DNA of 35,087 nt from IMG/VR virus record IMGVR_UViG_3300037484_000473, positions 1 through 35,087 of that record; one strand, 5' to 3'. Made by a program: the position numbers and the translations under genes. This stretch comes from a virus. Shown here piece after piece: positions 1 to 35,087 of this stretch. Each line of letters opens with the position of its first letter. Within the stretch, counting starts at the first letter, position 1. Below the pieces are notes generated by a model. That model saw only the letters and a program-made list of their open reading frames with translations, was not told the origin of the DNA and searched no databases.

Positions 1-127
1 CTATCTCGTCAGCCTTGGCAACGAGCTTCCTGAAGGCTGATCCAGCCGCACTGAAGCCAACGCCCAACCCACCACCGAGAAGGGCACCAAAGCCGATCCC
101 CTGTAGTAGTTGCTCGGCGGTAGCCCC
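1..127. repeat. Terminal direct repeat copy 1 (identical to 34961..35087); assembly overlap or terminal redundancy
   Basis: Base-by-base comparison shows 127/127 identity with the last 127 bases of the window. Confidence 0.95.
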
Positions 128-2706: not shown

Positions 2707-4440
2707 TTACCCCTGCATCCTTCGGAGTTCATCAAGAGCATCTAACCTGTGGGCTAGCTCTCCAATGGCCGCTGTGTTCTGCATCGTTAGCCGACCGGTA
2801 TCGATCCGCCTCTTGCCATCTGGGCCTTTCGAAACCACGGAACGACCTGCAGGAGTTTTCTCCAGATCCTGAGCCATGACACCGTATTGACGGCCCGATG
2901 TGCCACCAGGAGCCTCAGAGTCTCGATACTCGTACGAGTAACCAGGAGCCTTGGCGGCCATCCGCAGAGCTTCGTAGGAGTCCAGAGCCTCGTAAGAGTC
3001 TATAGACTTCTTGGCTCTGCGATCCGAGAGCATCGACAACGCGCCGATACCAGAACCAAGGAGTCCGGTTATGCTGCTATCGTTCTCTGCATCACTCTGT
3101 TGGTTTGCTTTTGAGACTTCAGTGTCAGCTTTAAGCTTCGCTTCGGCCAGGTCAGATCGGCGGGAAGCTTCGTTCTCACCTATTCCAAGGGCTGCCTGGT
3201 CGTATGCTGATTGCTGCCCAATACCTGCCTGGTATCCGGACATTTGTTGCCCGACCCCAGCCTGGTAGGCTGTTAATTGTTGCTGTTGGCCGGTCTGCTG
3301 AATACCAGCGCCGGAATTGAGAGCACTAAGGTATTGATCGTAGCCAGTGGACGTTTGCGTGGCTGCCGCCTGCTGACCCGTCATAGCCTGCCCGATGTAG
3401 CCTTGACGTGCCGTTTCAGTTGAAGCTTGTGCTGCTGTGGTCGCCCCGTACTGGCTCCCGTATTGACCAGCCGCAGCTTCCGTTGCGGCTAGTTTCTGCT
3501 GGTCAATACCTTGGGCATATTGCCCGTAGGATTGGGCTGCCTGAAGGTCCGTTGCAGCACCAGTTAGACGGTTCCCCTCAGCCGCAGAGGCTAGGTCACC
3601 GGAGGATCCGAGGGCTGATAACTGCTGACCCCTCCAATTGGCTGCCTCGCTAGCTCGAAGTGTAGCCATCTCCCCTGCAGTCTTTTGTCCAAGGTCAGCC
3701 GCCTGGAATTGGGCCTGGCGCATGGCACCAGCATTGGCCCCGGCACCTCTCCCAGAACGGGCGAGGGCTATCTGAGAGGCTACGTTGGAGTCCTGAGCCT
3801 GTAAGAGCTGAGCCTCAGCGGCACTGGGTCCTGGACCTTGTGCCGCGTACTGCCTGAGGGCGTCATAACTCGATTGCTGCTGACCATTGTCTTGGCCAGA
3901 GCTGAAGTTCGAAAGCTTGTTGAGGGCTGTATTTGTGTCAGCACTCGGGGAGTATGCATTGAGCTGGTCGGCGGACACCCTCCACCGATCTAGTGCTGAA
4001 GCGTCCCCGAACTCGTCTAACGTGTTCGCCCTGCTCTCAGCTCCCGTGTAGAGGTCGGTCGCATTCCTCGCCTGTGAGGACCCGCTAGTGAGGGCACCTA
4101 CACCAGCATTACTAAGTCCTTGGGCCGCTACATTCGCACTTCCAGCACTAGATTCGCCAAGCTTTGCCAGGGTGTTGTACTGATCGGTGCCTACACCCAA
4201 GAGGGTCTGGTATTGATTGGTTCCACGATCCGTTAGGCTTTGCTGGGCCTCCTGTTGTGCCTTGAGGCTTCCACCGTAGGCGTAGTCGGTGACGTCATAC
4301 GTGCCAGCGGTGGCAACCTGCCCTCGGAAAGGATCAGTGAGCCACTCCATGTCCTTGTCACGGCTGGCCTCAACTCCTGCCGCAGCTCGTTCCTTCTGGT
4401 ACTCTTCCTCTGGGGTGGTGTCCTTGTATTGCGTAGGCAT
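2707..4440 (-). CDS. 577-aa tail needle/fibre-like protein with C-terminal intramolecular-chaperone autoproteolysis domain (peptidase S74)
   Basis: The C-terminal 106 aa (about 2710..3027) begin LSDRRAKKSI. They contain Y.YEYR...G....GVMAQDLEK.P..V.....G...ID...L......AIGEL, matching the S-D-x-R-x-K-x-x-I S74 signature. The remainder is Q/A/G-rich and predicted helical. Confidence 0.75.
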   Translation of the reverse strand: MPTQYKDTTPEEEYQKERAAAGVEASRDKDMEWLTDPFRGQVATAGTYDVTDYAYGGSLKAQQEAQQSLTDRGTNQYQTLLGVGTDQYNTLAKLGESSAGSANVAAQGLSNAGVGALTSGSSQARNATDLYTGAESRANTLDEFGDASALDRWRVSADQLNAYSPSADTNTALNKLSNFSSGQDNGQQQSSYDALRQYAAQGPGPSAAEAQLLQAQDSNVASQIALARSGRGAGANAGAMRQAQFQAADLGQKTAGEMATLRASEAANWRGQQLSALGSSGDLASAAEGNRLTGAATDLQAAQSYGQYAQGIDQQKLAATEAAAGQYGSQYGATTAAQASTETARQGYIGQAMTGQQAAATQTSTGYDQYLSALNSGAGIQQTGQQQQLTAYQAGVGQQMSGYQAGIGQQSAYDQAALGIGENEASRRSDLAEAKLKADTEVSKANQQSDAENDSSITGLLGSGIGALSMLSDRRAKKSIDSYEALDSYEALRMAAKAPGYSYEYRDSEAPGGTSGRQYGVMAQDLEKTPAGRSVVSKGPDGKRRIDTGRLTMQNTAAIGELAHRLDALDELRRMQG

Positions 4441-7400: not shown

Positions 7401-7853
7401 GCCATAGGTATACATCGCATCACCGAAGATTAGGTCAACCCTCGGAGCCTCATCGATCTCGATGGTCTGCGAGTTCTCCTCCACCTGGCGTTGCCAGATT
7501 TCATCCTCAAGGGCAAATACGGGGACGCCTGTTATTGCCGCCTTACGCTGCTTGTCTACAACTATTGAAGTGTTGTTGGCAGTCACTCCATAGGCGAGCG
7601 GGGCTCTAAGTGAGCCTGAATTCGTGGCCGTCGGAAGGGCGACAGCGCCAGGAGTCTTGGCAATCCGTCCGGGCGCATCTAGGCGAGCATTGACCAGCCG
7701 AGCTACCCTCGGAGGACCGCCGTGCTCGTCGGGCAACTGAGAGAATCCGTTTAGATTGACGGGGATCCTAGCCAATGCGATGCCAACCCTCTCCCGAGGA
7801 AATCCAGATCCTCGTCCTGTAGGTGAGTGGGGTGGATGATGCTGCCCCGTCAA
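4440..7853 (-). CDS. Large (1111-1137 aa) tail structural protein; tail hub/nozzle candidate by position
   Basis: This is the longest ORF and has a TAATG junction with the next gene. The track start (TTG 7853) overlaps the upstream gene by 86 nt. An alternative TTG at 7775 follows GGGAGAGGG and overlaps the upstream stop by only a few nt. Confidence 0.6.
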   Translation of the reverse strand: MTGQHHPPHSPTGRGSGFPRERVGIALARIPVNLNGFSQLPDEHGGPPRVARLVNARLDAPGRIAKTPGAVALPTATNSGSLRAPLAYGVTANNTSIVVDKQRKAAITGVPVFALEDEIWQRQVEENSQTIEIDEAPRVDLIFGDAMYTYGQPGVADLGDGDFLVFADAALLQHGVGGFGYDSEVHWALVSGADLQVKARGSVVYGVPDTAGSPRYPMAAGKYVCMWYGLQSIGIYEFNRTTCALELKLPCSFDTLTYSPGMQIDAAYDSVQDRILVCGPNAEYFWVDPSDWSINLTGTFAGVTPDSGTLGLSICSTITVGRTYVIWRVDDVYWYKLVATITDSGVTVTSAATSFWASYYALTEAGTNTPWQAKVTAWGNAAWTSYSEGAMVVIYDRPYDTAGFPSVQGMLVQMLSTGGVVAKNIAGFDFFGAIPATKPVVVPTESELGSQLAKGRCWGYMTSGRSLRAAVCLAESTRKYECNHIHQDKNYPRLVGMAFRAAEPAPVPIETLVGGTNALVRTETGIRGRSGWLAAMVAMRDAATTTHTKVYLVTQGDGAALETATGTALPDVLQQANANGVTLFATALPSQFGTKAEMTGSQYTARKPLVSENVTGSIPAGTYLYCVVRKWFDSVGNLMRSAVSEPTSVTSSSSGSFNVAIMDDPWENRQINTTQTGGYTDLLPGTITEIYRTTNAGSVFYLVTPNGIPTPGGQLLYDIYNDVTLDTAITANEILYTQGQNGGNSGMLDWWGCPPCRCIWAGFNRVIVGGLENARRAQLSNLFFPGEGLSFPANAAFYVDVPEDVTAVAAMDQMWLIFSANAIWAFNGAGPDSFGSGTFGDVLLLPSGVGARSWRSVVETPEGLMFQASNARIYCIQRGSLQVQDRSQAIRDSIGCAPTNVNGYQAGDGDTSDPTYWVIGAVYDKFANEVWFVDHLSRSWVYQLEFGAWREEVSTSDLGKTRISVGTIHVGDYVGPVFVTLDPTPVGSRCCRRSDSNTYLDRGSKTRFMGITTNDIDLVHGRIKRAWVKVHTEVDEVTTRFLPAKMHFWFDGLRNDQLPDESRSYALSLTTLTTRFLDEEFCPARQKCNQVRLTWSDVPTGVYANIANYVLGIELELEQSPKVRGSIRYAGGSNRGT

Positions 7854-8232
7854 TTAGGCCCGACATTGGCTGTACTGTGATTGTGTAAGGCGCTGCGGTA
7901 ATAACTGCGATTTCTGCCCCTCGGTTCGCTATAGACGGCGCCGGAAAGAGGATCGTACAGTCCCCCTTTACAATGACTAGATCCCAAAGCTGTGCCTGGT
8001 AGTTGGTTGAAGTCGTGACTGGGTTCCAAGCAGGCTTTGAACCCTTAGCTAGGGCATCTACTGCATCGGAGGCATTTTTCTCAGTGTCAATGAGGGCCTG
8101 CTTGGCGGCTAACCCCAGGGCGTTGATTGCCTCACCTAGCGTCCGCTTCTCAGGGTCACCTGAGAACTGGCGGATCACTCCCTCAAGGCCGGGCCAAGCA
8201 CCTCTACGGCGCATCTTCGTTGGAATGGCCAT
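7768..8232 (-). CDS. 154-aa hypothetical virion-module protein
   Basis: ORF in the late operon; its start overlaps the upstream stop (TAATG). Confidence 0.65.
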   Translation of the reverse strand: MAIPTKMRRRGAWPGLEGVIRQFSGDPEKRTLGEAINALGLAAKQALIDTEKNASDAVDALAKGSKPAWNPVTTSTNYQAQLWDLVIVKGDCTILFPAPSIANRGAEIAVITAAPYTITVQPMSGLIDGAASSTPLTYRTRIWISSGEGWHRIG

Positions 8233-8951
8233 TAGCGATGCCTCCGGCGAACGTCTACCCTTCGAGCCGGGGCTGGATCTCGCCTCTTGGCCCTCTTGGA
8301 TAGGTCCTTGTAGACCGTGTCTCGTTCGAGCAATCGAGCCTGGTAGAGGGCCACGTCATCGTCCCTCTGGGCCAAGACAACACCTACATGAGCCACCACG
8401 TACTCTAGGAGGCCCATGTCCGAGAAAAGACGATCCGCTACCGTGTCAAGGTCGACCCAAGCCTTCAACCCGAGGATCCTGAAAGATCTGGCAGCGTCCA
8501 ATGGAGGGGTGATCAGGATCCTCTGACCCTGCCCCGTAACGGTTACACCGCCGGTTTCGCCATCGAGGCCAACGAGGGCCCAAGCCTGAGGGACGCCCAC
8601 CGTGCTGTCGTCCGTGTCCGTGAGGGCGTCCATGAGGTGGGAATGCCTCAGGGGGATCCACGAGGAGCCCACCTTGCAGTGAACCTCGTGGACTATCTCG
8701 AATGACCCGAAAGTAGCGGCCGTCAGTATGGTTCCAGGGTAGCCAGTGGTTCTCCCTGTGACGGTCTGGGTTGCCTCCGTAGAGGAAACGAACAGCAGCG
8801 AGCCATCGGACGTTAGCCTGTCTCTCAGGTCACGGTAGGCATCATTGATAAGACGAAACAGGTTCGTCTGAGGATGACGGCTCGTGAACCCTTCGATATC
8901 ATATTTGAACCTGATGTCAGATTCAATCTCGGCCAACGTCCGGTAGCTCAT
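8232..8951 (-). CDS. 239-aa head-tail adaptor candidate (position only)
   Basis: The ORF lies 3 nt after the preceding stop, between the coat and the large tail protein. It has a basic C-terminal tail (RRDPAPARRVDVRRRHR). Confidence 0.5.
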   Translation of the reverse strand: MSYRTLAEIESDIRFKYDIEGFTSRHPQTNLFRLINDAYRDLRDRLTSDGSLLFVSSTEATQTVTGRTTGYPGTILTAATFGSFEIVHEVHCKVGSSWIPLRHSHLMDALTDTDDSTVGVPQAWALVGLDGETGGVTVTGQGQRILITPPLDAARSFRILGLKAWVDLDTVADRLFSDMGLLEYVVAHVGVVLAQRDDDVALYQARLLERDTVYKDLSKRAKRRDPAPARRVDVRRRHR

Positions 8952-19047: not shown

Positions 19048-19063
19048 GTGTCGTTGTCGACAC
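19048..19063. terminator. Short hairpin GTGTCG-ttgt-CGACAC between convergent genes
   Basis: A 6-bp stem lies between the 19040 (+) and 19063 (-) gene ends. There is no clear U-tract. Confidence 0.3.
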
Positions 19064-19665
19064 TATCCATTGGGGCGTGATGGTCTTTCCTTAACTGCCT
19101 TTGCAAGACCCTCTATGACAGCAACCGTAAGCTTCACAGCAGCGTCAATTTCGTCGTCCGCAACCTCATCCAGAAAATCATCTTTTGGATGGGCACCATA
19201 GACGTTTGCGAAAACTCGAATGTTGTGGGCTTGGCCCGCCTGTATGGCGGTCATAATCCCCCGTTCTTTAAGCACCCCTATCTTTTTGGCCAGCGTGTCG
19301 GAAGGGCCTCCCACCTCGTTGGTTGCTCGCTCTAGGGCGCGACGGAGCATAACCGTAGCCGCACGGGAACACCCAGCATTTGCCGCACGAATACCTTCCT
19401 TGAGATCCTTACCTATTTCGGGAGATACGGATCGGAGAGCACTAACGGGCACAACAAACCTGTCGACGGGGTCAACCGTCTTCAATCCTCCCATCATATC
19501 GAATGTAATACTATGTGTGAATTTGCAGGCCGGGCATCTCCAAAGATGAGGCCCATCTATCCACCATTTGGGGGCCTCATGAAAACCGTAGCATCCGTGG
19601 CACTGGATATCTGTCATCTCTAACCAATCCTTCGCTACTGCTTCCCGCAACCATGTTTGGATCAT
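19063..19665 (-). CDS. 200-aa protein with an N-terminal zinc ribbon (CHGC...CPAC) and a C-terminal DUF4145-like domain
   Basis: The C-terminal pattern is A..C.RAATVMLRRALE......G....LAKKI..L...G.......H.IR..AN.YGAHP, followed by DEIDAAVKL. This matches my memory of the DUF4145 pattern. Confidence 0.6.
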   Translation of the reverse strand: MIQTWLREAVAKDWLEMTDIQCHGCYGFHEAPKWWIDGPHLWRCPACKFTHSITFDMMGGLKTVDPVDRFVVPVSALRSVSPEIGKDLKEGIRAANAGCSRAATVMLRRALERATNEVGGPSDTLAKKIGVLKERGIMTAIQAGQAHNIRVFANVYGAHPKDDFLDEVADDEIDAAVKLTVAVIEGLAKAVKERPSRPNG

Positions 19666-23320: not shown

Positions 23321-23653
23321 CTACTCGTCGAGGATCATGATCGCATCGTCGGCCGTGCCGCCCCATTCGTAGCGTAGCCCGACCATTTTGATAGCATTTG
23401 CCGCTATTTCACCGATTGAAACATCTGGAGTGAAATAGACTGCACCGTCATTTTGCTGCACTGTGTACACAGATCCTCGCACTTTCCGGCCTTTTTCGGC
23501 TAGTAGTCGATCTGAGCGATCCTCCAGCTGACAACACGCACATGTACAGCAGCATGCGTAGCGGTAGTGGGCGAGGATATTTTGCCGGCGAACCGTATCG
23601 AACGCTAGCAGGAGTTTTGCTTTCGTTGGTTCGGAAAAGCGTTTAAAGGGCAT
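23321..23653 (-). CDS. 110-aa protein with cysteine cluster YACCCTCACCQ
   Basis: The ORF is preceded by GAAGGAGAAG and has six Cys within 9 residues. Confidence 0.6.
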   Translation of the reverse strand: MPFKRFSEPTKAKLLLAFDTVRRQNILAHYRYACCCTCACCQLEDRSDRLLAEKGRKVRGSVYTVQQNDGAVYFTPDVSIGEIAANAIKMVGLRYEWGGTADDAIMILDE

Positions 23654-24738: not shown

Positions 24739-25227
24739 GTGGTTGGCGCCGGTTCGGTGGATCCCCCGGCGAAATGGAGCAACGTCGATAGCGTGGCAGA
24801 CGACCTTCCGAGATGGATTCGGATTCAGCAGCTTAAGGATCGTGCTCTTGCAGATCATTTGGAGCGTCAATACGCCGCTCCAAAAGAGGTCGACTCGACT
24901 TCGTTGACCAAGGCGCAACTTGCCAAGGCACTCGGGGTGTCGTCGTCGACGGTTTCAACGTGGCTGCGTGAGGGGATCCCCTGCCTTCGGCGGGGCAATG
25001 TTGTTCGATTTGATCTGGAGCAAGTTAAGCAATGGGCAGGCACGCAAGCGGGTGGAAACTCCGTCTCAGCACCGGCAGCAAAACCTACTCGGTTAGGTTC
25101 TGGTCGGCGAAGGAACAACGCCAAGTCGAGCTCAGCACAGGCGAGCAAGACCCTGATCGAGCTGCGGAGAGAGCTGCGGTCCTCTACTCGGACCACGTCC
25201 AAGGGCGCCTTAAAGACCGGCAAATAA
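24739..25227 (+). CDS. Excisionase-family HTH protein (Xis or regulator candidate); 3' end overlaps int by 196 nt
   Basis: The HTH segment is LTKAQLAKALGVSSSTVSTWLREGIPCLRRGNVVRFDLEQVKQW. There is no in-frame ATG; candidate starts are TTG 24739 or GTG 24793. Confidence 0.55.
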   Translation: MVGAGSVDPPAKWSNVDSVADDLPRWIRIQQLKDRALADHLERQYAAPKEVDSTSLTKAQLAKALGVSSSTVSTWLREGIPCLRRGNVVRFDLEQVKQWAGTQAGGNSVSAPAAKPTRLGSGRRRNNAKSSSAQASKTLIELRRELRSSTRTTSKGALKTGK

Positions 25228-26102
25228 AGCAAGCTGGAACACCAGCGGCCATGGAAGATGCCGCGGTGAAGTGGATCGAAGCTTCAAGGGGGTTGATCGC
25301 AGACAACACGCTAACCACCTATGCCCAGTACTTCTCTAGCCACCTGGTGGACGCCTTCCCTTCCCTGCTTGATGTCACTCCTTCATCGGTCAAGGAATAC
25401 ATCACCAAGAGGTTGGCAGTCGTTCGAGCCCAAAGCGTCCGGAAGGAGTTGTCGGCACTCCGTGGGGTGACGGCTTGGGCTGCTGAGACCGGCTTGATTG
25501 CAGAGCAGCCTTTGATCCCAGGGATCGCCAAGAAGGTTCAGGGGACAGCCTGGTCGAAGAAACGACGTTCGAAGGCTGGACGACTTGAGGTTGAAGAAAT
25601 CGAAGCCTTCTTGGCGGCGCTACCTGTCACGGTAGCCAAGATTGGGTTCGTCCAAGCGAGGTTCGTACTTCAATACGAGATGGCATTGAGGCCCTCGCTC
25701 GTAGACCGCTTATCTGCCCCTGAGCATTGGTACCCCGGGAGCAAATACCTAACCCTCGATGCCAGTTCAATGAAGGCCAGAACCGAGTCCGAGAAGCTAC
25801 TCACCCATCGAGCCAAGCAAGCTCTAGAGGATTCATACCGCGGCCCAGGGCTGATCTACGGGTGCCATGACTACCGCTTGGTAGTTGCCGAGGCGGCCCT
25901 GGTCCTCCCTCCGGAGAAGGCTGCCACCTTCACAACCGCTCACTTGCGGTCAGCCGGACTGACTCACCTGGTTGACCAAGGGGCCAGTTTGGCCGAGGTG
26001 CAGGCCCATGCTGACCACAAATTGGCCAGTACGACTGACCGTTATTTGAGGTCCTCAAAGAAGTCCCTGGAAGCGTTTCTCGTCCGTCGTGGACGGGCAT
26101 AA
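25032..26102 (+). CDS. int: Tyrosine recombinase (phage integrase)
   Basis: The N-terminus reads GRHASGWKLRL..SKTYSVRF. The catalytic region contains ALRPS, HDYR, TAHLRSAGLTHL and HADHKLASTTDRYL (R...H-x-x-R...H...Y). Confidence 0.85.
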   Translation: MGRHASGWKLRLSTGSKTYSVRFWSAKEQRQVELSTGEQDPDRAAERAAVLYSDHVQGRLKDRQIKQAGTPAAMEDAAVKWIEASRGLIADNTLTTYAQYFSSHLVDAFPSLLDVTPSSVKEYITKRLAVVRAQSVRKELSALRGVTAWAAETGLIAEQPLIPGIAKKVQGTAWSKKRRSKAGRLEVEEIEAFLAALPVTVAKIGFVQARFVLQYEMALRPSLVDRLSAPEHWYPGSKYLTLDASSMKARTESEKLLTHRAKQALEDSYRGPGLIYGCHDYRLVVAEAALVLPPEKAATFTTAHLRSAGLTHLVDQGASLAEVQAHADHKLASTTDRYLRSSKKSLEAFLVRRGRA

Positions 26103-26445
26103 CAGGGAGGGTAGTAGGGAGCCACCACCTAACTATCGGAATTTAGACAATAAAAAACGCTAGATCAGTGAACCTGAATCTAGCGCGTCTGCCAGTTCCG
26201 CCATCTTCGCAGTGAATGATTTCCGGCACTTACCGTCTCAATCGGTCTAGGGAGGGTCTCGGAAGGTGTGCCAAATAGCAGGGAGGGTTTTCCGAAACAG
26301 GGAGGGTCTCCCTAGTATCCCTGGGAGGCTCCAGACAGGTTCTAGTGCCTCTTCGGGGCGGCCTTTAAAGCACCCCTCGGGTGGACGGTCAAGGGGCTCC
26401 CCTTCGTTGCAGCGCCTTAAAAGGATGTAGGGAGGCTCTCCCTAG
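26103..26445. promoter_or_regulatory. att-like region with five AGGGAGG sites, two of them full dyads (AGGGAG-N3-CTCCCT)
   Basis: Sites are at 26103..26112, 26248..26260, 26279..26290, 26298..26312 (dyad) and 26428..26445 (dyad TAGGGAG-gct-CTCCCTA). Confidence 0.55.
26151..26185 (-). terminator. Rho-independent terminator oriented for leftward transcription
   Basis: The minus strand reads CGCTAGAT-t-CAG-gttca-CTG-ATCTAGCG followed by TTTTTTATT. Confidence 0.6.
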
Positions 26446-26575
26446 AAGACCCCTCACCTCCTCCCAGACATCCACCATAGAAAATGGAGCCACTTCACCG
26501 ACTTGCGCCGGACCGGCTAGCCTATCTTCTATGGAGTTATCCCGCAGATCCCGTATGTTAGGGGCACTCCGGAGA

Positions 26576-26602
26576 ACTCCATTTGACGGCTCGAAATGGA
26601 GT
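26576..26602. promoter_or_regulatory. Dyad ACTCCATTT-9 nt-AAATGGAGT upstream of the Cys-rich peptide gene
   Basis: 9-bp perfect arms are at 26576..26584 and 26594..26602. The AAATGGAG core recurs at 24772, 26482 and 27366. Confidence 0.6.
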
Positions 26603-26642
26603 CTGCAGGCTAATGTTTATTAGTCTGAAGGAGACTCACCCA

Positions 26643-26816
26643 ATGCTCAAAGTGTCAATTGCCGCGTTACTCATCAGCCTCACCACCGCTGAAGCTCCCC
26701 CAACCGCACAACCCCAAGGCTGGGGTTCATGCTGGGAGGTTAAGCCGATCTGCATCCAGGGGGCTCCCATCTGCATGTGCGATCAACGCAACAAGTGCTT
26801 TTGGGCTTGTCGTTGA
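26643..26816 (+). CDS. 57-aa secreted six-cysteine mini-protein (18-aa signal peptide plus 39-aa mature peptide)
   Basis: AAGGAG lies 8 nt upstream of the ATG. The signal peptide is MLKVSIAALLISLTTAEA and the mature part is PPTAQPQGWGSCWEVKPICIQGAPICMCDQRNKCFWACR. An alternative in-frame ATG is at 26613. Confidence 0.6.
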   Translation: MLKVSIAALLISLTTAEAPPTAQPQGWGSCWEVKPICIQGAPICMCDQRNKCFWACR

Positions 26817-26826
26817 GGGGGACGCC

Positions 26827-27009
26827 ATGTCGAGCCAAGAAATCCCGGCCCACAAGGGAGACGATGAAATCCTCCAGAAGCTGCAGGAGCAGCTCAGCCT
26901 AGAGGACTGGACGAAGCTTCGTCGGGGGCTAGCCCTCTTAGAAGATGAGGAGCCGACCACCAAACGTTCCAGCGCCCTCACGGTCAGGCACCACAAGGAG
27001 AGCCCGTAA
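26827..27009 (+). CDS. 60-aa acidic hypothetical protein
   Basis: The ATG is preceded by GAGGGGGA, 10 nt after the preceding stop. Confidence 0.45.
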   Translation: MSSQEIPAHKGDDEILQKLQEQLSLEDWTKLRRGLALLEDEEPTTKRSSALTVRHHKESP

Positions 27010-27134
27010 TGTACTGGTGGATCTCGCTAGCACTGTGTTTCGTGGTTCCGCCGGTAGGGATCTTCCTCCTGATTATCCCTTTCGTTCTCAACTTTCTGGG
27101 GATAGCGGCATGGCTCCACTACGCCAAGAAGTAG
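27009..27134 (+). CDS. 41-aa hydrophobic membrane peptide (MYWWISLALCFVVPPVGIFLLIIPFVLNFLGIAAWLHYAKK)
   Basis: It has a TAATG overlap with the preceding ORF. It falls below the ORF-track size cutoff and was translated by hand. Confidence 0.45.
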   Translation: MYWWISLALCFVVPPVGIFLLIIPFVLNFLGIAAWLHYAKK

Positions 27135-27364
27135 GATTCTGCTGCATTTGCGGCCAGGTGATCCCCAAGACCGATCTCGTCCAACTGCCACGGAGGGAGC
27201 GTGCTCGGCTGTACGTAGCTCGTTCCTTCGGATGGTTTGCACATGTCGGCTGTAGGGCCGCTCTAACCCGAACCCTGGCCCCCTACCTCGCCAGATTCCC
27301 GACAATCCGGGCGGACAATCAGGTCGTCGATGGGGTCCTGGGGCTTGAGCCCACCCCTTTTTAG
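27110..27364 (+). CDS. 84-aa hypothetical protein with CCICG and HVGC motifs
   Basis: This uses an internal ATG of ORF 26945..27364 and overlaps the 41-aa ORF by 25 nt. Confidence 0.4.
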   Translation: MAPLRQEVGFCCICGQVIPKTDLVQLPRRERARLYVARSFGWFAHVGCRAALTRTLAPYLARFPTIRADNQVVDGVLGLEPTPF

Positions 27365-27449
27365 AAAATGGAGTAAGCTTTCTTAGTTTTCATATCCCCG
27401 CAATTGTTGCGCCAGGGACATAAGGTAGGTAATTTTGGCCGCGAAGAAG

Positions 27450-27632
27450 ATGCCCCGAGTACCCCCCAAAGCCGACTCAACGGCCATGAATTTCTTCTTG
27501 CCGGCCAAGCTGCACGCCAAGATCAAAGCAGCTGCAGCCCTGAGGCTGATGTCCATGCAGGACCTAGTGATTGAGATCCTCGCCCGAGAGATCGACAAGG
27601 AACTTGCTTCAGCGGTGAAGAAGTCCAGCTGA
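27450..27632 (+). CDS. Ribbon-helix-helix (Arc/MetJ/CopG-type) DNA-binding protein
   Basis: MNFFLPAKLHAKIKAAAALRLMSMQDLVIEILAREI fits the beta-strand/helix/helix RHH pattern. Possible starts are at 27435, 27450 or 27486. Confidence 0.55.
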   Translation: MPRVPPKADSTAMNFFLPAKLHAKIKAAAALRLMSMQDLVIEILAREIDKELASAVKKSS

Positions 27633-27642
27633 GCCCAAATAG

Positions 27643-27680
27643 CCTCAAGGCCCACAACCTAGAGGAAGGGGGCCTTGAGG
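27643..27680. terminator. Hairpin CCTCAAGGCCC-16 nt-GGGCCTTGAGG between convergent units
   Basis: An 11-bp perfect stem lies 11 nt after the RHH stop. There is no strong U-tract. Confidence 0.4.
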
Positions 27681-27886
27681 GGTGCAGTGAACATCCAATC
27701 CAAACTCACCAAGATAGACGGACCGATCCCAGGGGGGTCCTTAGCCCAAATCGACGACCTACAGTAGAGCCCCTTTGACTACCTGTCGTTTAGGATCCAC
27801 CGCCCACGGCTCACGTATGGAGAGCGAAGCCGGGGGCGGCTTCATGGGTAGTTACGGCCAAGGCAGCTTGCTTCTTTAGGTGGACC

Positions 27887-28663
27887 CTACACCGTAAGCA
27901 TCTCCTCTACCCGCCTGTCCTCAATAGCAGCCTTCCTTCGCAAGGGCTGATCGCTTTTGAACATCCAGCCCTTGGCCTCTTGGATCTGCCTGTACGTGTC
28001 TGCAATCCGTTGAACTTCCGGGTCATCCGAGAGTGTTAGCTTGTTGATCGCTTTCTTCGAAGCGATCAGGACCGAAGGCTGGCAGATTTTCAACTCCTCG
28101 GCGGTATGACTGAAGCTACCGTTATACCAATAAAGCACGAGCATGGCTGCGACACTTACTCTCGGTGGTTGGCTATTACGGTCCGTCTTGCGTGGCTTGT
28201 TTCGGCTGCGACGTGGCTTTGAGATCACAATCCGGTTCGCTTCTCCGAGGGCTTTCGTAAGCTTCTCGGTTAGCTCTTCTCGAGTGTATTGAGGCCGAGA
28301 GGCCACGAACTTTAGCCGCCTTAATGCCTTCTGAAAATGAAATGATGTTCCAGCTTGGGAGAGACCAAGGATCTCTACCATCTGGAATTGCCTCAGCCCA
28401 CCGAGAGCCATGCGAAGCATGTCGGCATCGGTATCAGGGAGCTGGGAAAGAAGGCTCTCGAACGACTGCGTGGGTGACTCGGGCTCTAGCTTATCGGTCT
28501 CAAGATCATCGACGTAAGGGATCCCTTTAGCTCGCAGAAGAGCTGGATCCAAAGGCGTTATGAACGGTCGCCAAGGCATCTTGGATCTTACACCCTCGCG
28601 AGCGTATGTGCAGACCGAAACTCGTGTACCTCGCAGATGCCTTGTGTTCTCCTGAGAGGTCAT
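27887..28663 (-). CDS. 258-aa DNA-binding protein with a sigma-70 region-4/LuxR-like HTH and a second C-terminal HTH
   Basis: DADMLRMALGGLRQFQMVEILGLSQAGTSFHFQKALRRLK fits the region 4.2 pattern. A second HTH-like segment is SHTAEELKICQPSVLIASKKAINKL. The gene has a TAATG overlap with the upstream gene. Confidence 0.5.
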   Translation of the reverse strand: MTSQENTRHLRGTRVSVCTYAREGVRSKMPWRPFITPLDPALLRAKGIPYVDDLETDKLEPESPTQSFESLLSQLPDTDADMLRMALGGLRQFQMVEILGLSQAGTSFHFQKALRRLKFVASRPQYTREELTEKLTKALGEANRIVISKPRRSRNKPRKTDRNSQPPRVSVAAMLVLYWYNGSFSHTAEELKICQPSVLIASKKAINKLTLSDDPEVQRIADTYRQIQEAKGWMFKSDQPLRRKAAIEDRRVEEMLTV

Positions 28664-30552: not shown

Positions 30553-30939
30553 TTATGCTGGGTGGGTATGCGTCCAACTGGTGATTGAGATGGCTTGACC
30601 AGCCACGATTGACGTAGCGTCTACGATCATGTCCGCACCTGAACCGCTGAGGCCGATTGTGCCTTCCCACACCTGAGTAAATGTCCCGGAACGGTCAAAG
30701 ACTCGGTACTTGGACATCGTTCCGGGGGTGATGCAGGTTGCTGTGAGTGGCAGTCCAGCGGCTGTAGCTACACCCGTGGAAGCCGCACCAAAGGAAGGGT
30801 TGGGCAGGTAGATCAGCACGAGGATGTTGTAGACGCTGTCATCCAACTCCAACCAAGCTGGTGAAGCACCGACGTCAACCAAGTCGACGACAGCGTTGCA
30901 AGCAGCGTTTCTAGGGGCAGTTTCAAGTGTTACGGCCAT
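30553..30939 (-). CDS. 128-aa fibre-module protein, paralogue B
   Basis: It shares RNAACNAVVDLVDVG and GTIG.SGSGADMIVD.TSI..GQ.ISITSWTHT.PA with the adjacent gene. Confidence 0.7.
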   Translation of the reverse strand: MAVTLETAPRNAACNAVVDLVDVGASPAWLELDDSVYNILVLIYLPNPSFGAASTGVATAAGLPLTATCITPGTMSKYRVFDRSGTFTQVWEGTIGLSGSGADMIVDATSIVAGQAISITSWTHTHPA

Positions 30940-30948
30940 GGTAGATCC

Positions 30949-31326
30949 TTAGGCGGGTTGGGTATGGGTCCAGCTGGTGATTGAGATGACCTGACCAAAC
31001 GCTATCGACGTAGAGTCCACAATCATATCGGCACCGGAACCAGCGATCCCGATGGTCCCTTGCCACATTTTGACACCGTCATGGTCATACACTGAGTACG
31101 TAGTCAGTGTCCCCGCATTCAAGGCTTGCCCCGTGAGAGGTAGAGTGCTTGCTGTGGCTATGCCGGTAGAGGACGCCCCAAAAGCAGGGTTTGGTAGATC
31201 TATTGTTATCGGAGGAGAGACACCGGACAGCAATATTGCTGCTGGTTGTGCCGATCCAACATCGACTAGGTCAACAACAGCATTGCAGGCAGCATTTCGG
31301 GCAGCTGTGGTGAGAATAAGACCCAT
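30949..31326 (-). CDS. 125-aa fibre-module protein, paralogue A
   Basis: This is a tandem duplicate of 30553..30939. Confidence 0.7.
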   Translation of the reverse strand: MGLILTTAARNAACNAVVDLVDVGSAQPAAILLSGVSPPITIDLPNPAFGASSTGIATASTLPLTGQALNAGTLTTYSVYDHDGVKMWQGTIGIAGSGADMIVDSTSIAFGQVISITSWTHTQPA

Positions 31327-32885: not shown

Positions 32886-35087
32886 CTATGCAGAAGGCCA
32901 GTTTTCCTGGGGCAATTTGGCCGAAGCCACTAGGTTGGGAGCCTTGCGGCTCTTCGGTGCCGTAGGTGCTTTCGGTTGCTTGAGTTGAAGCTGGGTGATC
33001 CGATCTGAAACTTTCGGACTGAACGCAGGCTCGCCAGCACCACCGAGGTCAAGGAGAAGATCGAGTTGTTGCCGAGTGTTGATCGGGATGCGTCCACCCC
33101 TCTTGGCTACTTCGATGATTGCGTCTTGAACACTCGCTCGAATGGCTTGGTACGTCTCATGGTGTACAACCTTGAGGGCTTCTATTTGGTCGGGCGTAGC
33201 GATCCCCCGTTGAAGGTCCTCTAGGACGGTCATGGGCCGCTCTACTGCTGCCCATATACGGGCAAACCGAGCCATTTCAACCTTTGAAACCACGCTCTTG
33301 CGACCGGGCATCAACTCGGTTGGATCTAGAGTTCCGGACGGTGCCTTCGAAGCCAGGAACTGGATGGCGTTGGAAGTCTTTTCTACCAAGGCGCCAGCAA
33401 GTCCTGGGTTGATGTTCGATAGCCCGCCAGTGACCTTGGCGACATTGTCAATGAGGCTGTCAGGGTCTTGTTGAGCCCGGATCAACTGGTTTGACCTTCT
33501 CTCATAGGCTGACTCAAGGTCCTTATCGCGGCCCATGAACAACGAGACCGAGGCTGGTACGGCAACCTTCTGGACGGTCTTGGCTACTGGTTCTACTGCC
33601 TTGGCAACCTTGGCGGCTTTCTCAGCGATGCCGAAGCCAGCCGAGGATTTGACCCAATTGCCCGCCTTTCCAGACATCTTGACACCAAGGCGATTGGCTA
33701 GGCTTGAGATCTGATCTGCTGCTGCAATGGCTGAACCCGGCTTTGCCAGCATTCCGAAGGCACCCATGACGGCACCCATGGGGCCAGCCTGGATGGCACC
33801 CGTGACCGCACCAATGGAACGTCCGATGATTCCGCCACCAAGAGGGCTTGCCAAGGAAGAGACGTCCTTCTCGGCCTTCATGACGTCATCGATCCGATTG
33901 GCTATCGATATCGTCTTGTCAATCTTCTGGAGTTCCGATTGAACCTGCTTGTACGCCTTGCGGGCCGTCTCTAGGTGGACTCGCTGTGCCTCGTCTAGTG
34001 GGTGGTATTCCGCTATCGTGTCAATCAGGTCCTGGGCCGCACTGATATGGTTTCTTACGGCCTCTTGGGCGGTCTGACCTCGCGAGGTTCCGATCCCCTC
34101 AATCCAGGATTGGACCTTCGAAGTGTCGGGCGAATAGCGTACCCTTCCGTCAGCCCATTCCGTATGTCCCGTAGAGGCATTGATGTTCTTGGCGTAGGCG
34201 TCACCCTCATCAAGGAATGGCTTCCAACGGCGGTTGATTTCACGTTGAGACTCGCCGGCACGGCCCCAAAGCTTCGTATCTTCGAGGGATACCCGCAAAG
34301 GCTCCTGGAGGGACTGCTCCATCTTTTGGTTGAGTTCCCTGGCAACCTCAATGACGGAACCATCGGTGCTTCTCTGGGCGGTATTCTTGAAGGCGGTTTG
34401 AACCCTTTGGGCCTCACGCTTGATCTCATCCCCTACGATGAAGACGTCGGCTGCATCCCGATGTTCCCCACCCTTGAGGGTATCGAGCTTGTTGTTGACG
34501 TAGTGGACGAACCGGCCCATCCGCTTCTGAATTGAGGCTAGTCCAGGATCGTCCTTAGGTATGGATTCAAGAATGTCGTTGGCCGTGGTCATTGCTGACC
34601 GGAGCTGAGACGTACCCGTACGGACAGCTTCTACTTGGTCAACACCGGCTAACATTGGTTCAATGCCGGCTCGCTTTGCGGGCATTTGCCGGACATTGAC
34701 CGAGATTGAATCGATAGCCTCGTCTAGCTTGTCGAGGGCCTCCGTCATCTTTGGGACGGCTGCCTCAACGTTGGCTTGGCGATTCTTCCAGAGGCTTCTT
34801 GCCTCTACTGCGGCCTCACCCATGTTGTGGGCGCCGGCTTGTTGGAGCGTCACGTAGTCAGCACCCGTGAGATTCGATTGGATCCTTGCCAAAGGGTCTT
34901 CGGATGCCCCCATAGCGGCCTTCCCTGCACCTTCCGGAGCTACTACTCCCGGAGGTGGGGCTATCTCGTCAGCCTTGGCAACGAGCTTCCTGAAGGCTGA
35001 TCCAGCCGCACTGAAGCCAACGCCCAACCCACCACCGAGAAGGGCACCAAAGCCGATCCCCTGTAGTAGTTGCTCGGCGGTAGCCCC
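32886..35087 (-). CDS. C-terminal part of the junction-spanning 954-aa virion/ejection-like protein (34961..35087 duplicates 1..127)
   Basis: The frame is open to the right edge of the window. The track start at 35027 is an internal TTG. The protein has Gly/Ala-rich hydrophobic segments (IIGRSIGAVTGAIQAGPMGAVMGAFGMLA). Confidence 0.8.
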   Translation of the reverse strand, partial: GATAEQLLQGIGFGALLGGGLGVGFSAAGSAFRKLVAKADEIAPPPGVVAPEGAGKAAMGASEDPLARIQSNLTGADYVTLQQAGAHNMGEAAVEARSLWKNRQANVEAAVPKMTEALDKLDEAIDSISVNVRQMPAKRAGIEPMLAGVDQVEAVRTGTSQLRSAMTTANDILESIPKDDPGLASIQKRMGRFVHYVNNKLDTLKGGEHRDAADVFIVGDEIKREAQRVQTAFKNTAQRSTDGSVIEVARELNQKMEQSLQEPLRVSLEDTKLWGRAGESQREINRRWKPFLDEGDAYAKNINASTGHTEWADGRVRYSPDTSKVQSWIEGIGTSRGQTAQEAVRNHISAAQDLIDTIAEYHPLDEAQRVHLETARKAYKQVQSELQKIDKTISIANRIDDVMKAEKDVSSLASPLGGGIIGRSIGAVTGAIQAGPMGAVMGAFGMLAKPGSAIAAADQISSLANRLGVKMSGKAGNWVKSSAGFGIAEKAAKVAKAVEPVAKTVQKVAVPASVSLFMGRDKDLESAYERRSNQLIRAQQDPDSLIDNVAKVTGGLSNINPGLAGALVEKTSNAIQFLASKAPSGTLDPTELMPGRKSVVSKVEMARFARIWAAVERPMTVLEDLQRGIATPDQIEALKVVHHETYQAIRASVQDAIIEVAKRGGRIPINTRQQLDLLLDLGGAGEPAFSPKVSDRITQLQLKQPKAPTAPKSRKAPNLVASAKLPQENWPSA
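34961..35087. repeat. Terminal direct repeat copy 2 (identical to 1..127)
   Basis: Base-by-base comparison shows 127/127 identity with bases 1..127. Confidence 0.95.

Follow-up and report, generated by a model that had tools for sequence, protein, structure and literature searches.

The window analysed here is a stretch of viral DNA of 35,087 nucleotides (nt), taken at its full length (IMG/VR record IMGVR_UViG_3300037484_000473), and it carries, a short distance from its integrase gene, an open reading frame (ORF1) encoding a six-cysteine precursor. Judged from its sequence, ORF1 belongs to a previously unnamed and unannotated family of small phage proteins that are predicted to be exported, with a Sec-type N-terminus family-wide and six invariant cysteines. 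We read ORF1 as a self-contained phage accessory gene (a 'moron') whose exported product would act at the cell envelope, most likely in an exclusion-like role, and give this reading about an even chance. Designations of the type L001 denote other DNA loci, and those of the type P0015 denote family proteins. The gene in question is:

26643–26816, plus strand: ORF1, 57-residue six-cysteine precursor, preceded by AAGGAG at 26628–26633, with family homologues and a ratio of nonsynonymous to synonymous substitution rates (dN/dS) of 0.17

The Shine-Dalgarno sequence lies 9 nt ahead of the ATG, and the mature part of the protein carries its cysteines in the spacing C-x6-C-x6-C-x-C-x5-C-x3-C, as a preliminary description of this DNA had reported for the 57-residue frame. 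The precursor consists of a signal peptide (approximately residues 1–16 or 1–18) and a conserved core (residues 28–57). The preliminary description also assigned an AxA-type cleavage site; the Sec-type N-terminus recurs throughout the family, but the exact site is doubtful. Cleavage at AEA/PP leaves proline at position +1, a residue disfavoured there by signal peptidase I, and cleavage at TTA/EA, which gives a 41-residue product of ~4.6 kDa, appears at least as likely. Because of this proline, the mature N-terminus is left with two candidates. The mature peptide is weakly basic, with an isoelectric point (pI) of ~7.9. ORF1 itself appears to have no true lipobox: its first cysteine (C30) stands 13 polar, proline-rich residues beyond the hydrophobic region, and the fit to a loose PROSITE-style pattern is only formal. 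The codon log-likelihood of the frame is weak (−0.10 per codon), though still the best of the three frames.

A HMMER scan of ORF1 over 1.84 billion representative proteins (cut-off E<1e-3) returned 35 representative homologues with a best E of 2e-11; the closest relative of ORF1 gives E 1.7e-30. A profile search added further members and an IMG/VR viral contig contributed one more, for a total of 42 sequences. They form clusters of 1–2 sequences, all from metagenomes or metagenome-assembled genomes, and their names never go beyond 'hypothetical protein'. The members are 48–97 residues long; in each, a basic N-terminus and a hydrophobic stretch are followed by a short polar linker and a core of ~30 residues with the pattern G-x-C-x(6-7)-C-x(6-8)-C-x-C-x5-C-x-W-x-C, ending 1–7 residues past the last cysteine (one residue beyond it in 32 of the 42). 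The cysteine spacing is 6 (7 in two members), 6–8, 1, 5 and 3 in all 42. Thirty-three relatives align with ORF1 along its entire length, and ORF1 contains every invariant column, namely G28, C30, P35, C37, C44, C46, C52 and C56 in its own numbering, together with the nearly invariant W54. The core is strongly conserved across loci whose guanine-plus-cytosine (GC) content ranges from 51 to 69%. Five of the 42 sequences (P0015, P0018, P0024, P0030 and P0032) have a seventh cysteine, part of a lipobox located where the hydrophobic region ends, according to pattern matches rather than predictions by a trained tool. Two long repeat proteins, P0009 and P0031, were rejected as members, their similarity being of the short-motif or low-complexity kind. 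For one member of 185 residues, P0016, the gene call joins the six-cysteine peptide to a sigma70_r4-like protein, which could be a coincidence or a gene-calling read-through.

What looked like an orphan frame is thus part of a defined family with a sharp signature: a ~30-residue core, six invariant cysteines and a confidently predicted fold. The family appears restricted to phages, all of them uncultured. With the family alignment, AlphaFold2 gave a predicted local distance difference test score (pLDDT) of ~90 for residues 30–57, where the core is predicted to form a compact fold with a β-hairpin (42–46/52–56). The preliminary description had recommended a fold search with a predicted structure; Foldseek against the PDB and BFVD returned nothing below E=1.6, and the family profile against PDB sequences reached a best E of 0.46. 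The weak top matches by fold or sequence were to Kazal/follistatin-type modules and a Bowman-Birk-like cyclic inhibitor, none of them significant (all E>0.4). Neither ORF1 (no family at E<=1 in Pfam and NCBIfam; no match in PHROGs) nor its family (Pfam, NCBIfam, PHROGs and PADLOC) matched a known family, in agreement with the preliminary description, which had recognised none. Searches by tblastn with ORF1 and a consensus-like relative against 50,697 deposited phage genomes found nothing significant, an IMG/VR scan with ORF1 as single query found no relatives, and the exact product is absent as a called gene product from the public assemblies searched. The literature yielded no description of such a six-cysteine phage family, the catalogues of small proteins not having been checked for it. 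The family is undescribed, but its general kind, small exported phage accessory proteins, is already known, and no unusual mechanism has been shown for it yet.

Two metagenomic contigs, L001 and L002, match positions 26450–27128 of the window at 93% nucleotide identity. This similarity takes in ORF1 and continues into the frames that follow it, which are arranged thus:

26827–27009, plus strand: ORF2, 60-residue acidic, hydrophilic protein (pI 5.5; dN/dS 0.14; codon log-likelihood +0.22)
27009–27134, plus strand: ORF3, 41-residue hydrophobic membrane micro-protein (grand average of hydropathy 1.5; own AAGGAG upstream; C-terminal HYAKK)
27109–27364, plus strand: ORF4, 84-codon open frame with CxxC...HxxC, a candidate gene (codon log-likelihood −0.36 per codon; GC content at third codon positions (GC3) 0.51)
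27435 (TTG) or 27450 (ATG) to 27632, plus strand: gene for a small regulator of 61–65 residues resembling ribbon-helix-helix (RHH) proteins (sub-threshold RHH matches; codon log-likelihood +0.35)
27643–27680: hairpin 3' of the RHH gene (inverted repeat I1)

Selection was estimated by the Nei-Gojobori method for the window against L001, the dS of adjacent genes being 0.16. Relative to L001 and L002, substitutions are mostly synonymous or conservative in the frames of ORF1, ORF2 and ORF3. All six cysteines of ORF1 are kept. In ORF2, seven nucleotides are substituted, among them those of a serine swap (TCG>AGC), and 3 nt are inserted in frame, with no amino-acid substitution at all (L001 ORF2 is 98% identical to that of the window). 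ORF3, with a dN/dS of 0.30, shows four conservative hydrophobic substitutions, and its counterpart is predicted by gene callers in both contigs. A 139-codon frame that overlaps ORF3 has a dN/dS of 3.47 and radical changes, which identifies the ORF3 frame as the selected one. These estimates indicate that ORF1, ORF2 and ORF3 are real genes under purifying selection. The acidic ORF2 and the hydrophobic ORF3 therefore stand as they were first described, including their junction, TAATG, in which the ORF3 start overlaps the ORF2 stop and by which ORF3 appears to be translationally coupled to ORF2. The hydrophobic window of ORF3 comprises residues 1–39. ORF3 is a membrane micro-protein local to this module; it would be a separate small inner-membrane protein that may act as a second exclusion-type factor or a local partner, but not as an immunity protein for the whole family. 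Neither ORF2 nor ORF3 has family matches in Pfam, PHROGs, NCBIfam or PADLOC.

The remainder of the cassette is less clear-cut. The preliminary description listed a cysteine-containing 84-residue ORF followed by an RHH regulator gene. The frame is present, but the standing of ORF4 as a gene is weakened by its codon statistics, since ORF2, ORF3 and the RHH gene score +0.08 to +0.35 with a GC3 of 0.72–0.75, and by the lack of homologues or family matches among 50,697 phage records (tblastn), in the IMG/VR scan and in Pfam, PHROGs and NCBIfam. The related contigs L001 and L002 end at window position 27128, ahead of most of ORF4. The regulator keeps sub-threshold support, with Pfam matches to FitA-like, HicB and ParD families (E 0.008–0.05) and PHROG matches to Arc-like and HicB-like proteins; all RHH matches fall below the gathering score (E 0.001–0.05). 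A strand-helix-helix pattern is visible by eye in the protein, which has no match among PDB sequences. PADLOC returned no match at E<=0.1 for ORF1 to ORF4 or the RHH protein. Single-query IMG/VR scans with the integrase, the 258-residue neighbour of the cassette, ORF4 and the RHH protein found no relatives, and the metagenome scan found only the L001 contig again.

Beyond L001 and L002, the family gene occurs in various surroundings. All long contigs that carry it look like phage, with terminase, portal, capsid and integrase genes; on the P0037 contig, the gene lies beside cellular-looking genes. The contexts examined (L004 to L011, L014 and L015, with ~9 distinct loci for the comparison of partners) include the following placements:

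L006 and L007–L009: directly after the large terminase gene, ahead of the portal gene
L005, L010 and L015: amid small early or DNA-metabolism genes
L004: at a strand switch by tail-fibre-like genes
L014: in the post-integrase island of a temperate phage

In L014, a 3' fragment of transfer-messenger RNA (tmRNA) at 7834–7900 on the minus strand (Rfam RF00023, E=2.8e-6) lies 110–170 nt upstream of the peptide gene, and within 8001–8404 the peptide gene overlaps the gene for a 71-residue protein with an N-terminal membrane segment. L014 and the window have no other protein detectably in common, and in both temperate phages, unrelated as they are, the family gene appears to sit beside the phage attachment site (attP).

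At the ~9 distinct other family loci, tblastn found no homologues of ORF2, ORF3 or ORF4; those of ORF2 and ORF3 occur only in the 93%-identical L001 and L002. A conserved bacteriocin/immunity pair, the layout that the preliminary description saw in the peptide and its tiny membrane protein, is therefore unsupported, and ORF1-family genes move between phages unaccompanied by ORF2, ORF3 and ORF4. The variability among relatives that the same description proposed to examine thus takes a split form, with ORF1 homologues widespread and ORF2–ORF3 confined to one close relative. Small membrane proteins do occur near the family gene: the coupled 71-residue protein in L014, a C-terminally anchored 106-residue protein immediately upstream in L004, and a 44-residue membrane peptide three genes away in L010. 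They are mutually unrelated, none is found at L005, L006 or L007–L009, and by a rough estimate their frequency is about that expected for phage small genes. The proposal that these are lysogenic-conversion genes fares better in part. ORF1 is att-proximal, on the strand opposite the lytic genes of a complete temperate genome, and L014 is organised likewise, but the many members in late or early lytic blocks argue that the family is not specifically a lysogenic-conversion function.

From these observations a mode of action can be outlined. The combination of a signal peptide with an even number of invariant cysteines points to export and oxidative folding. The ORF1 precursor would be exported by Sec and cut by signal peptidase I, and oxidation of its six cysteines in the periplasm (or extracytoplasmic space) would form three disulfides, the word 'periplasmic' being an assumption throughout. 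The outcome would be a rigid mini-protein of ~4.6 kDa, in the 41-residue form, acting at the envelope of the producing cell. The five relatives with a lipobox imply a membrane-tethered form, with the six core cysteines left for disulfides, and a tethered form suggests a factor acting on the producer's own envelope rather than a diffusible toxin. Conservation of the core across carriers of 51–69% GC suggests a conserved target. A more specific version, in which ORF1 binds a conserved envelope component and so blocks superinfection or otherwise modifies the envelope, in lysogeny as well as in lytic growth, is put forward tentatively, as something short of an even chance.

The closest functional analogues are T4 Sp, P1 Sim, T5 Llp and phi80/N15 Cor, small phage proteins with a signal or lipoprotein signal peptide that reside in the producer's periplasm or outer membrane and are made in lysogeny or early lytic growth, often from single accessory genes. 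The ORF1 family gene is likewise found in lytic modules and in lysogeny-adjacent ones, a distribution shared by the genes for T4 Sp and Imm, P1 Sim, T5 Llp and phi80 Cor, and a lipobox is present in five relatives, as in Llp and Cor. ORF1 differs from Sp, Sim, Llp and Cor in having no sequence or fold similarity to them and in being much smaller, with its ~30-residue core and six invariant cysteines.

Several considerations weigh against an exclusion-like envelope protein. ORF1 resembles no characterised exclusion protein in sequence, and none of the cassette proteins has a PADLOC match. The cleavage site is uncertain, the AxA site having proline at +1; the lipobox assignments are pattern matches; and a periplasmic location is assumed. 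Placement after the terminase or among early genes fits an enzyme inhibitor, a lysis regulator or a lysis-released factor equally well. Finally, a membrane protein lies downstream in two temperate phages (ORF3 in the window and the coupled 71-residue protein in L014), and a local two-component function is possible in these two.

Among the alternatives, the one we rate next, though as unlikely, has ORF1 inhibit or modulate an enzyme of the host or the phage in the periplasm, with a protease, a peptidoglycan hydrolase, a holin partner or a lysis-timing factor as candidate targets, and in this way serve the infection cycle instead of exclusion. It would explain the members in lytic blocks, after the large terminase (L006–L009) or among early and DNA-metabolism genes (L005, L010 and L015), and it suits a rigid disulfide-rich mini-protein, a typical format of enzyme inhibitors; the non-significant Kazal/follistatin-type and Bowman-Birk-like matches point the same way, and no lysis genes were recognised among the scanned ORFs of the complete genome. 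Yet every structural and sequence match has E>0.4, in two temperate phages the gene lies close to att, with the late genes on the other strand, and there is no endolysin-like neighbour at any family locus. A lysis cassette with ORF3 as holin was set aside for similar reasons, there being no endolysin nearby and the cassette lying opposite the late genes. The toxin/immunity reading, in which Sec would export ORF1 as a bacteriocin or toxin resembling a defensin or knottin, set free by lysogens or by lysis, with ORF3 as its membrane immunity protein, appears less probable still. ORF1 is small and exported, with three likely disulfides by prediction; ORF1 to ORF3 shift jointly between two phages as a 93%-identical block; membrane proteins accompany the gene in L014, directly coupled, and in L004, immediately upstream; and Sec-dependent disulfide-rich bacteriocins and enterotoxins are known. 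Against these points stand the lack of an ORF3 homologue at any other family locus, the mutual unrelatedness of the nearby membrane proteins and their absence from L005, L006 and L007–L009, the lack of transporter, processing or regulator genes typical of bacteriocin loci (Pfam, PHROGs and NCBIfam), the five relatives that look lipid-anchored, unlike a diffusible toxin, and the weakly basic mature peptide. Within the window, moreover, ORF2 separates ORF1 from ORF3, and ORF3 is coupled to ORF2 rather than to ORF1.

A broader variant, which we consider improbable to the same degree, places ORF1 in a class of extracellular effectors: a disulfide-locked mini-protein would fold in the periplasm, leave lysogens or escape upon lysis, and affect other cells, be it as an antimicrobial of the defensin kind, a toxin against grazers or a signal between phages. 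In temperate phages, the producer would be guarded by a small membrane protein recruited locally (ORF3, or the 71-residue protein of L014). There is, at the far end, almost no likelihood that the cysteine pattern and the 41-codon hydrophobic frame are accidents of composition in an att-adjacent spacer. The weak codon statistics of ORF1, the non-coding appearance of ORF4 by the same measure and the absence of the exact ORF1 product among called gene products speak for chance, but the homologues at E down to 2e-11 with cysteines invariant across phages of 51–69% GC, the dN/dS of 0.14–0.30 in the proposed frames against 3.47 in the alternative one, and the strong Shine-Dalgarno sequences before both ORF1 and ORF3 speak against it. 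Conservation and dN/dS rule chance out for ORF1, ORF2 and ORF3 and leave it possible only for ORF4. The tempting toxin/immunity reading finds no support in the comparative context.

Comparison of ORF1 with other cysteine-rich peptides brings out likenesses and differences. The heat-stable enterotoxins STa and STb of E. coli are tiny peptides made from Sec-dependent precursors, borne on mobile elements and oxidised in the periplasm, STa having six cysteines and three disulfides. ORF1 differs in its cysteine spacing and has no pro-region, and the Pfam Enterotoxin_ST profile does not match it (E<=1); ST peptides leave the bacterium to act on animal cells, of which the window gives no indication. 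Bacteriocins of the laterosporulin, actifensin and enterocin P type are likewise small exported disulfide-stabilised peptides, and a membrane protein is nearby in the window and L014 too. They differ from ORF1, which has no conserved immunity partner, transporter or processing genes and no sequence or fold match to them, and which is found in phages rather than bacteriocin loci. A Sec-type leader, as present in ORF1, is used by some bacteriocins; Pfam and PHROG scans found no ATP-binding cassette transporter or protease genes in the window. The likeness to knottins or conotoxins raised in the preliminary description extends to six cysteines in ~30 residues and a C-terminal β-hairpin in the model. 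The last two loop lengths of ORF1 (5 and 3) fall outside the inhibitor cystine knot consensus, the model contains only a two-stranded hairpin, and Foldseek lent the resemblance no support, with no knottin among 14 PDB matches at E<=10. SCIFF/ranthipeptides (six cysteines in forty-five residues) gave no NCBIfam match at E<=1, and the window has no radical S-adenosylmethionine gene; SCIFF precursors, unlike ORF1, have no signal peptide.

Few parts of phage genomes are as poorly understood as the small exported proteins. Two catalogues of small secreted or transmembrane microbiome proteins describe short ORFs, many of them predicted to be secreted, derived from comparative metagenomics only (bioRxiv 10.1101/494179; PMC11364881); the ORF1 family likewise consists of short ORFs from metagenomes, and in neither case is a function attached. 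The ORF1 protein is tiny, easy to synthesise and probably very stable, which makes a direct test of function feasible, be it exclusion, enzyme inhibition or toxicity. If there is indeed a conserved envelope target in hosts of 51–69% GC, the family could reveal a strategy general among phages or a scaffold useful for ligands.

The expression of ORF1 may be tied to that of its neighbours through a shared DNA element in the leader of the cassette:

26450–26642, plus strand: upstream regulatory region of the cassette, 193 nt, with three AAATGGAG sites and one TATGGAGT site
24772 (start of the xis/int region), 26482, 26577 (minus strand) and 26594 (these three in the ORF1 leader), and 27366 (upstream of the RHH gene): AAATGGAG sites
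26478–26489 and 27362–27373, plus strand: exact copies of the 12-mer TAGAAAATGGAG (repeat family D7), the second upstream of the RHH gene

The leader is ~96% identical to that of L001 and L002, more conserved than synonymous sites (dS 0.16), and all of its sites are kept in both, including an inverted pair, ACTCCATTT-N9-AAATGGAGT. The window contains five copies of the element AAATGGAG where 1.06 are expected, a count reached in none of 100 shuffles, and all five sites lie in regulatory spacers of the plus-strand island. It is a candidate operator or promoter element that the xis/int region shares with the cassette and with the RHH gene; all three may then be co-regulated by a single DNA-binding protein, perhaps the product of the RHH gene itself. 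A sigma-70 consensus promoter was not found in the leader, and its RNA fold is not significant relative to shuffles (z −1.1). The 93% identity to L001 begins sharply at 26450, and the adjacent integrases are only 59% identical, so the regulatory region, ORF1, ORF2 and ORF3 form a mosaic module, which would have been acquired as a mobile block.

Between the integrase gene and this leader lies the probable attP:

26172–26214, minus strand: 5' half of a tRNA-Leu(CAG)-like sequence, probable attP core (88% identity over 43 nt to tRNA-Leu genes)
~26143–26175, minus strand: hairpin and T-run (TTTTTTATT) 3' of the truncated tRNA-Leu half
26099–26445, plus strand: CAGGGAGGGT and AGGGAGGNTCTCCCTAG repeats (repeat families D1 and D2, inverted repeat I3), candidate arm-type sites of the integrase

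Of 5426 E. coli genomes, 5425 have annotated tRNA-Leu genes with this identity to the 43-nt stretch. The stretch adjoins the 3' end of the integrase gene, ~430 nt upstream of ORF1, and is flanked on the right by CAGGGAGGGT repeats reaching 26445. ARAGORN found no complete tRNA in the region, and Rfam over 25900–27900 gave no match. Besides the leader from 26450, the tRNA-Leu half is the only part of the spacer between integrase and ORF1 that is kept in L001, where its anticodon loop, read by eye, is TTGAGGT; the att arms cannot be aligned between the two. The phage carries the 5' half of the tRNA and not the usual 3' part, so the rebuilt tRNA would take its upstream region from the phage. After integration, the host promoter would drive a truncated tRNA ending at the phage terminator, that is, at the hairpin and T-run. 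The cassette would lie immediately inside the P' arm of attP and, in the prophage, would be the first gene set by the rebuilt tRNA-Leu. Downstream of a related integrase in IMG/VR (L013, 49% identity) the cargo is a different one, which marks the slot beside the integrase as a variable cargo slot.

The first and last 127 bases of the window (1–127 and 34961–35087) are identical, an exact terminal overlap that makes the window a complete phage genome of ~34,960 bp, assembled as a circle or terminally redundant. blastn of the cassette region against deposited phages gave no match. The minus strand encodes the portal, the large terminase and a DnaB-like helicase, and the portal, capsid and terminase are 25–30% identical to their counterparts in SU10-like metagenomic phages. 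Pfam and PHROGs recognised no holin, endolysin or spanin among the ORFs scanned. The sole plus-strand island (24739–27632) comprises a helix-turn-helix (HTH)/excisionase-like gene, the tyrosine integrase, the cassette and the RHH gene. The excisionase-like and integrase ORFs overlap by 196 nt as listed, and one of the two start codons is probably wrong. Other features of the genome are:

24739–25227, plus strand: HTH_17/excisionase-like ORF (Pfam and PHROG matches)
25032–26102, plus strand: tyrosine integrase (Pfam and PHROG matches)
2707–4440, minus strand: tail-fibre-like protein with a C-terminal Peptidase_S74 intramolecular chaperone domain (E=8e-9)
19063–19665, minus strand: 200-residue DUF4145 protein (E=5e-10), with a weak PADLOC match to PD-T7-4 (E=4.6e-4)
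23321–23653, minus strand: 110-residue early-region protein with a DUF6891 domain (E=4e-8)
27887–28663, minus strand: gene for a 258-residue protein, convergent with the cassette, with weak similarity to sigma-70 region 4 and extracytoplasmic function (ECF) sigma factors
30553–30939 and 30949–31326, minus strand: two tandem paralogous genes (PHROG 3758, virion structural protein, E ~1e-13 to 1e-14)

Among these, the DUF4145 protein is a possible phage-borne defence or anti-defence gene.

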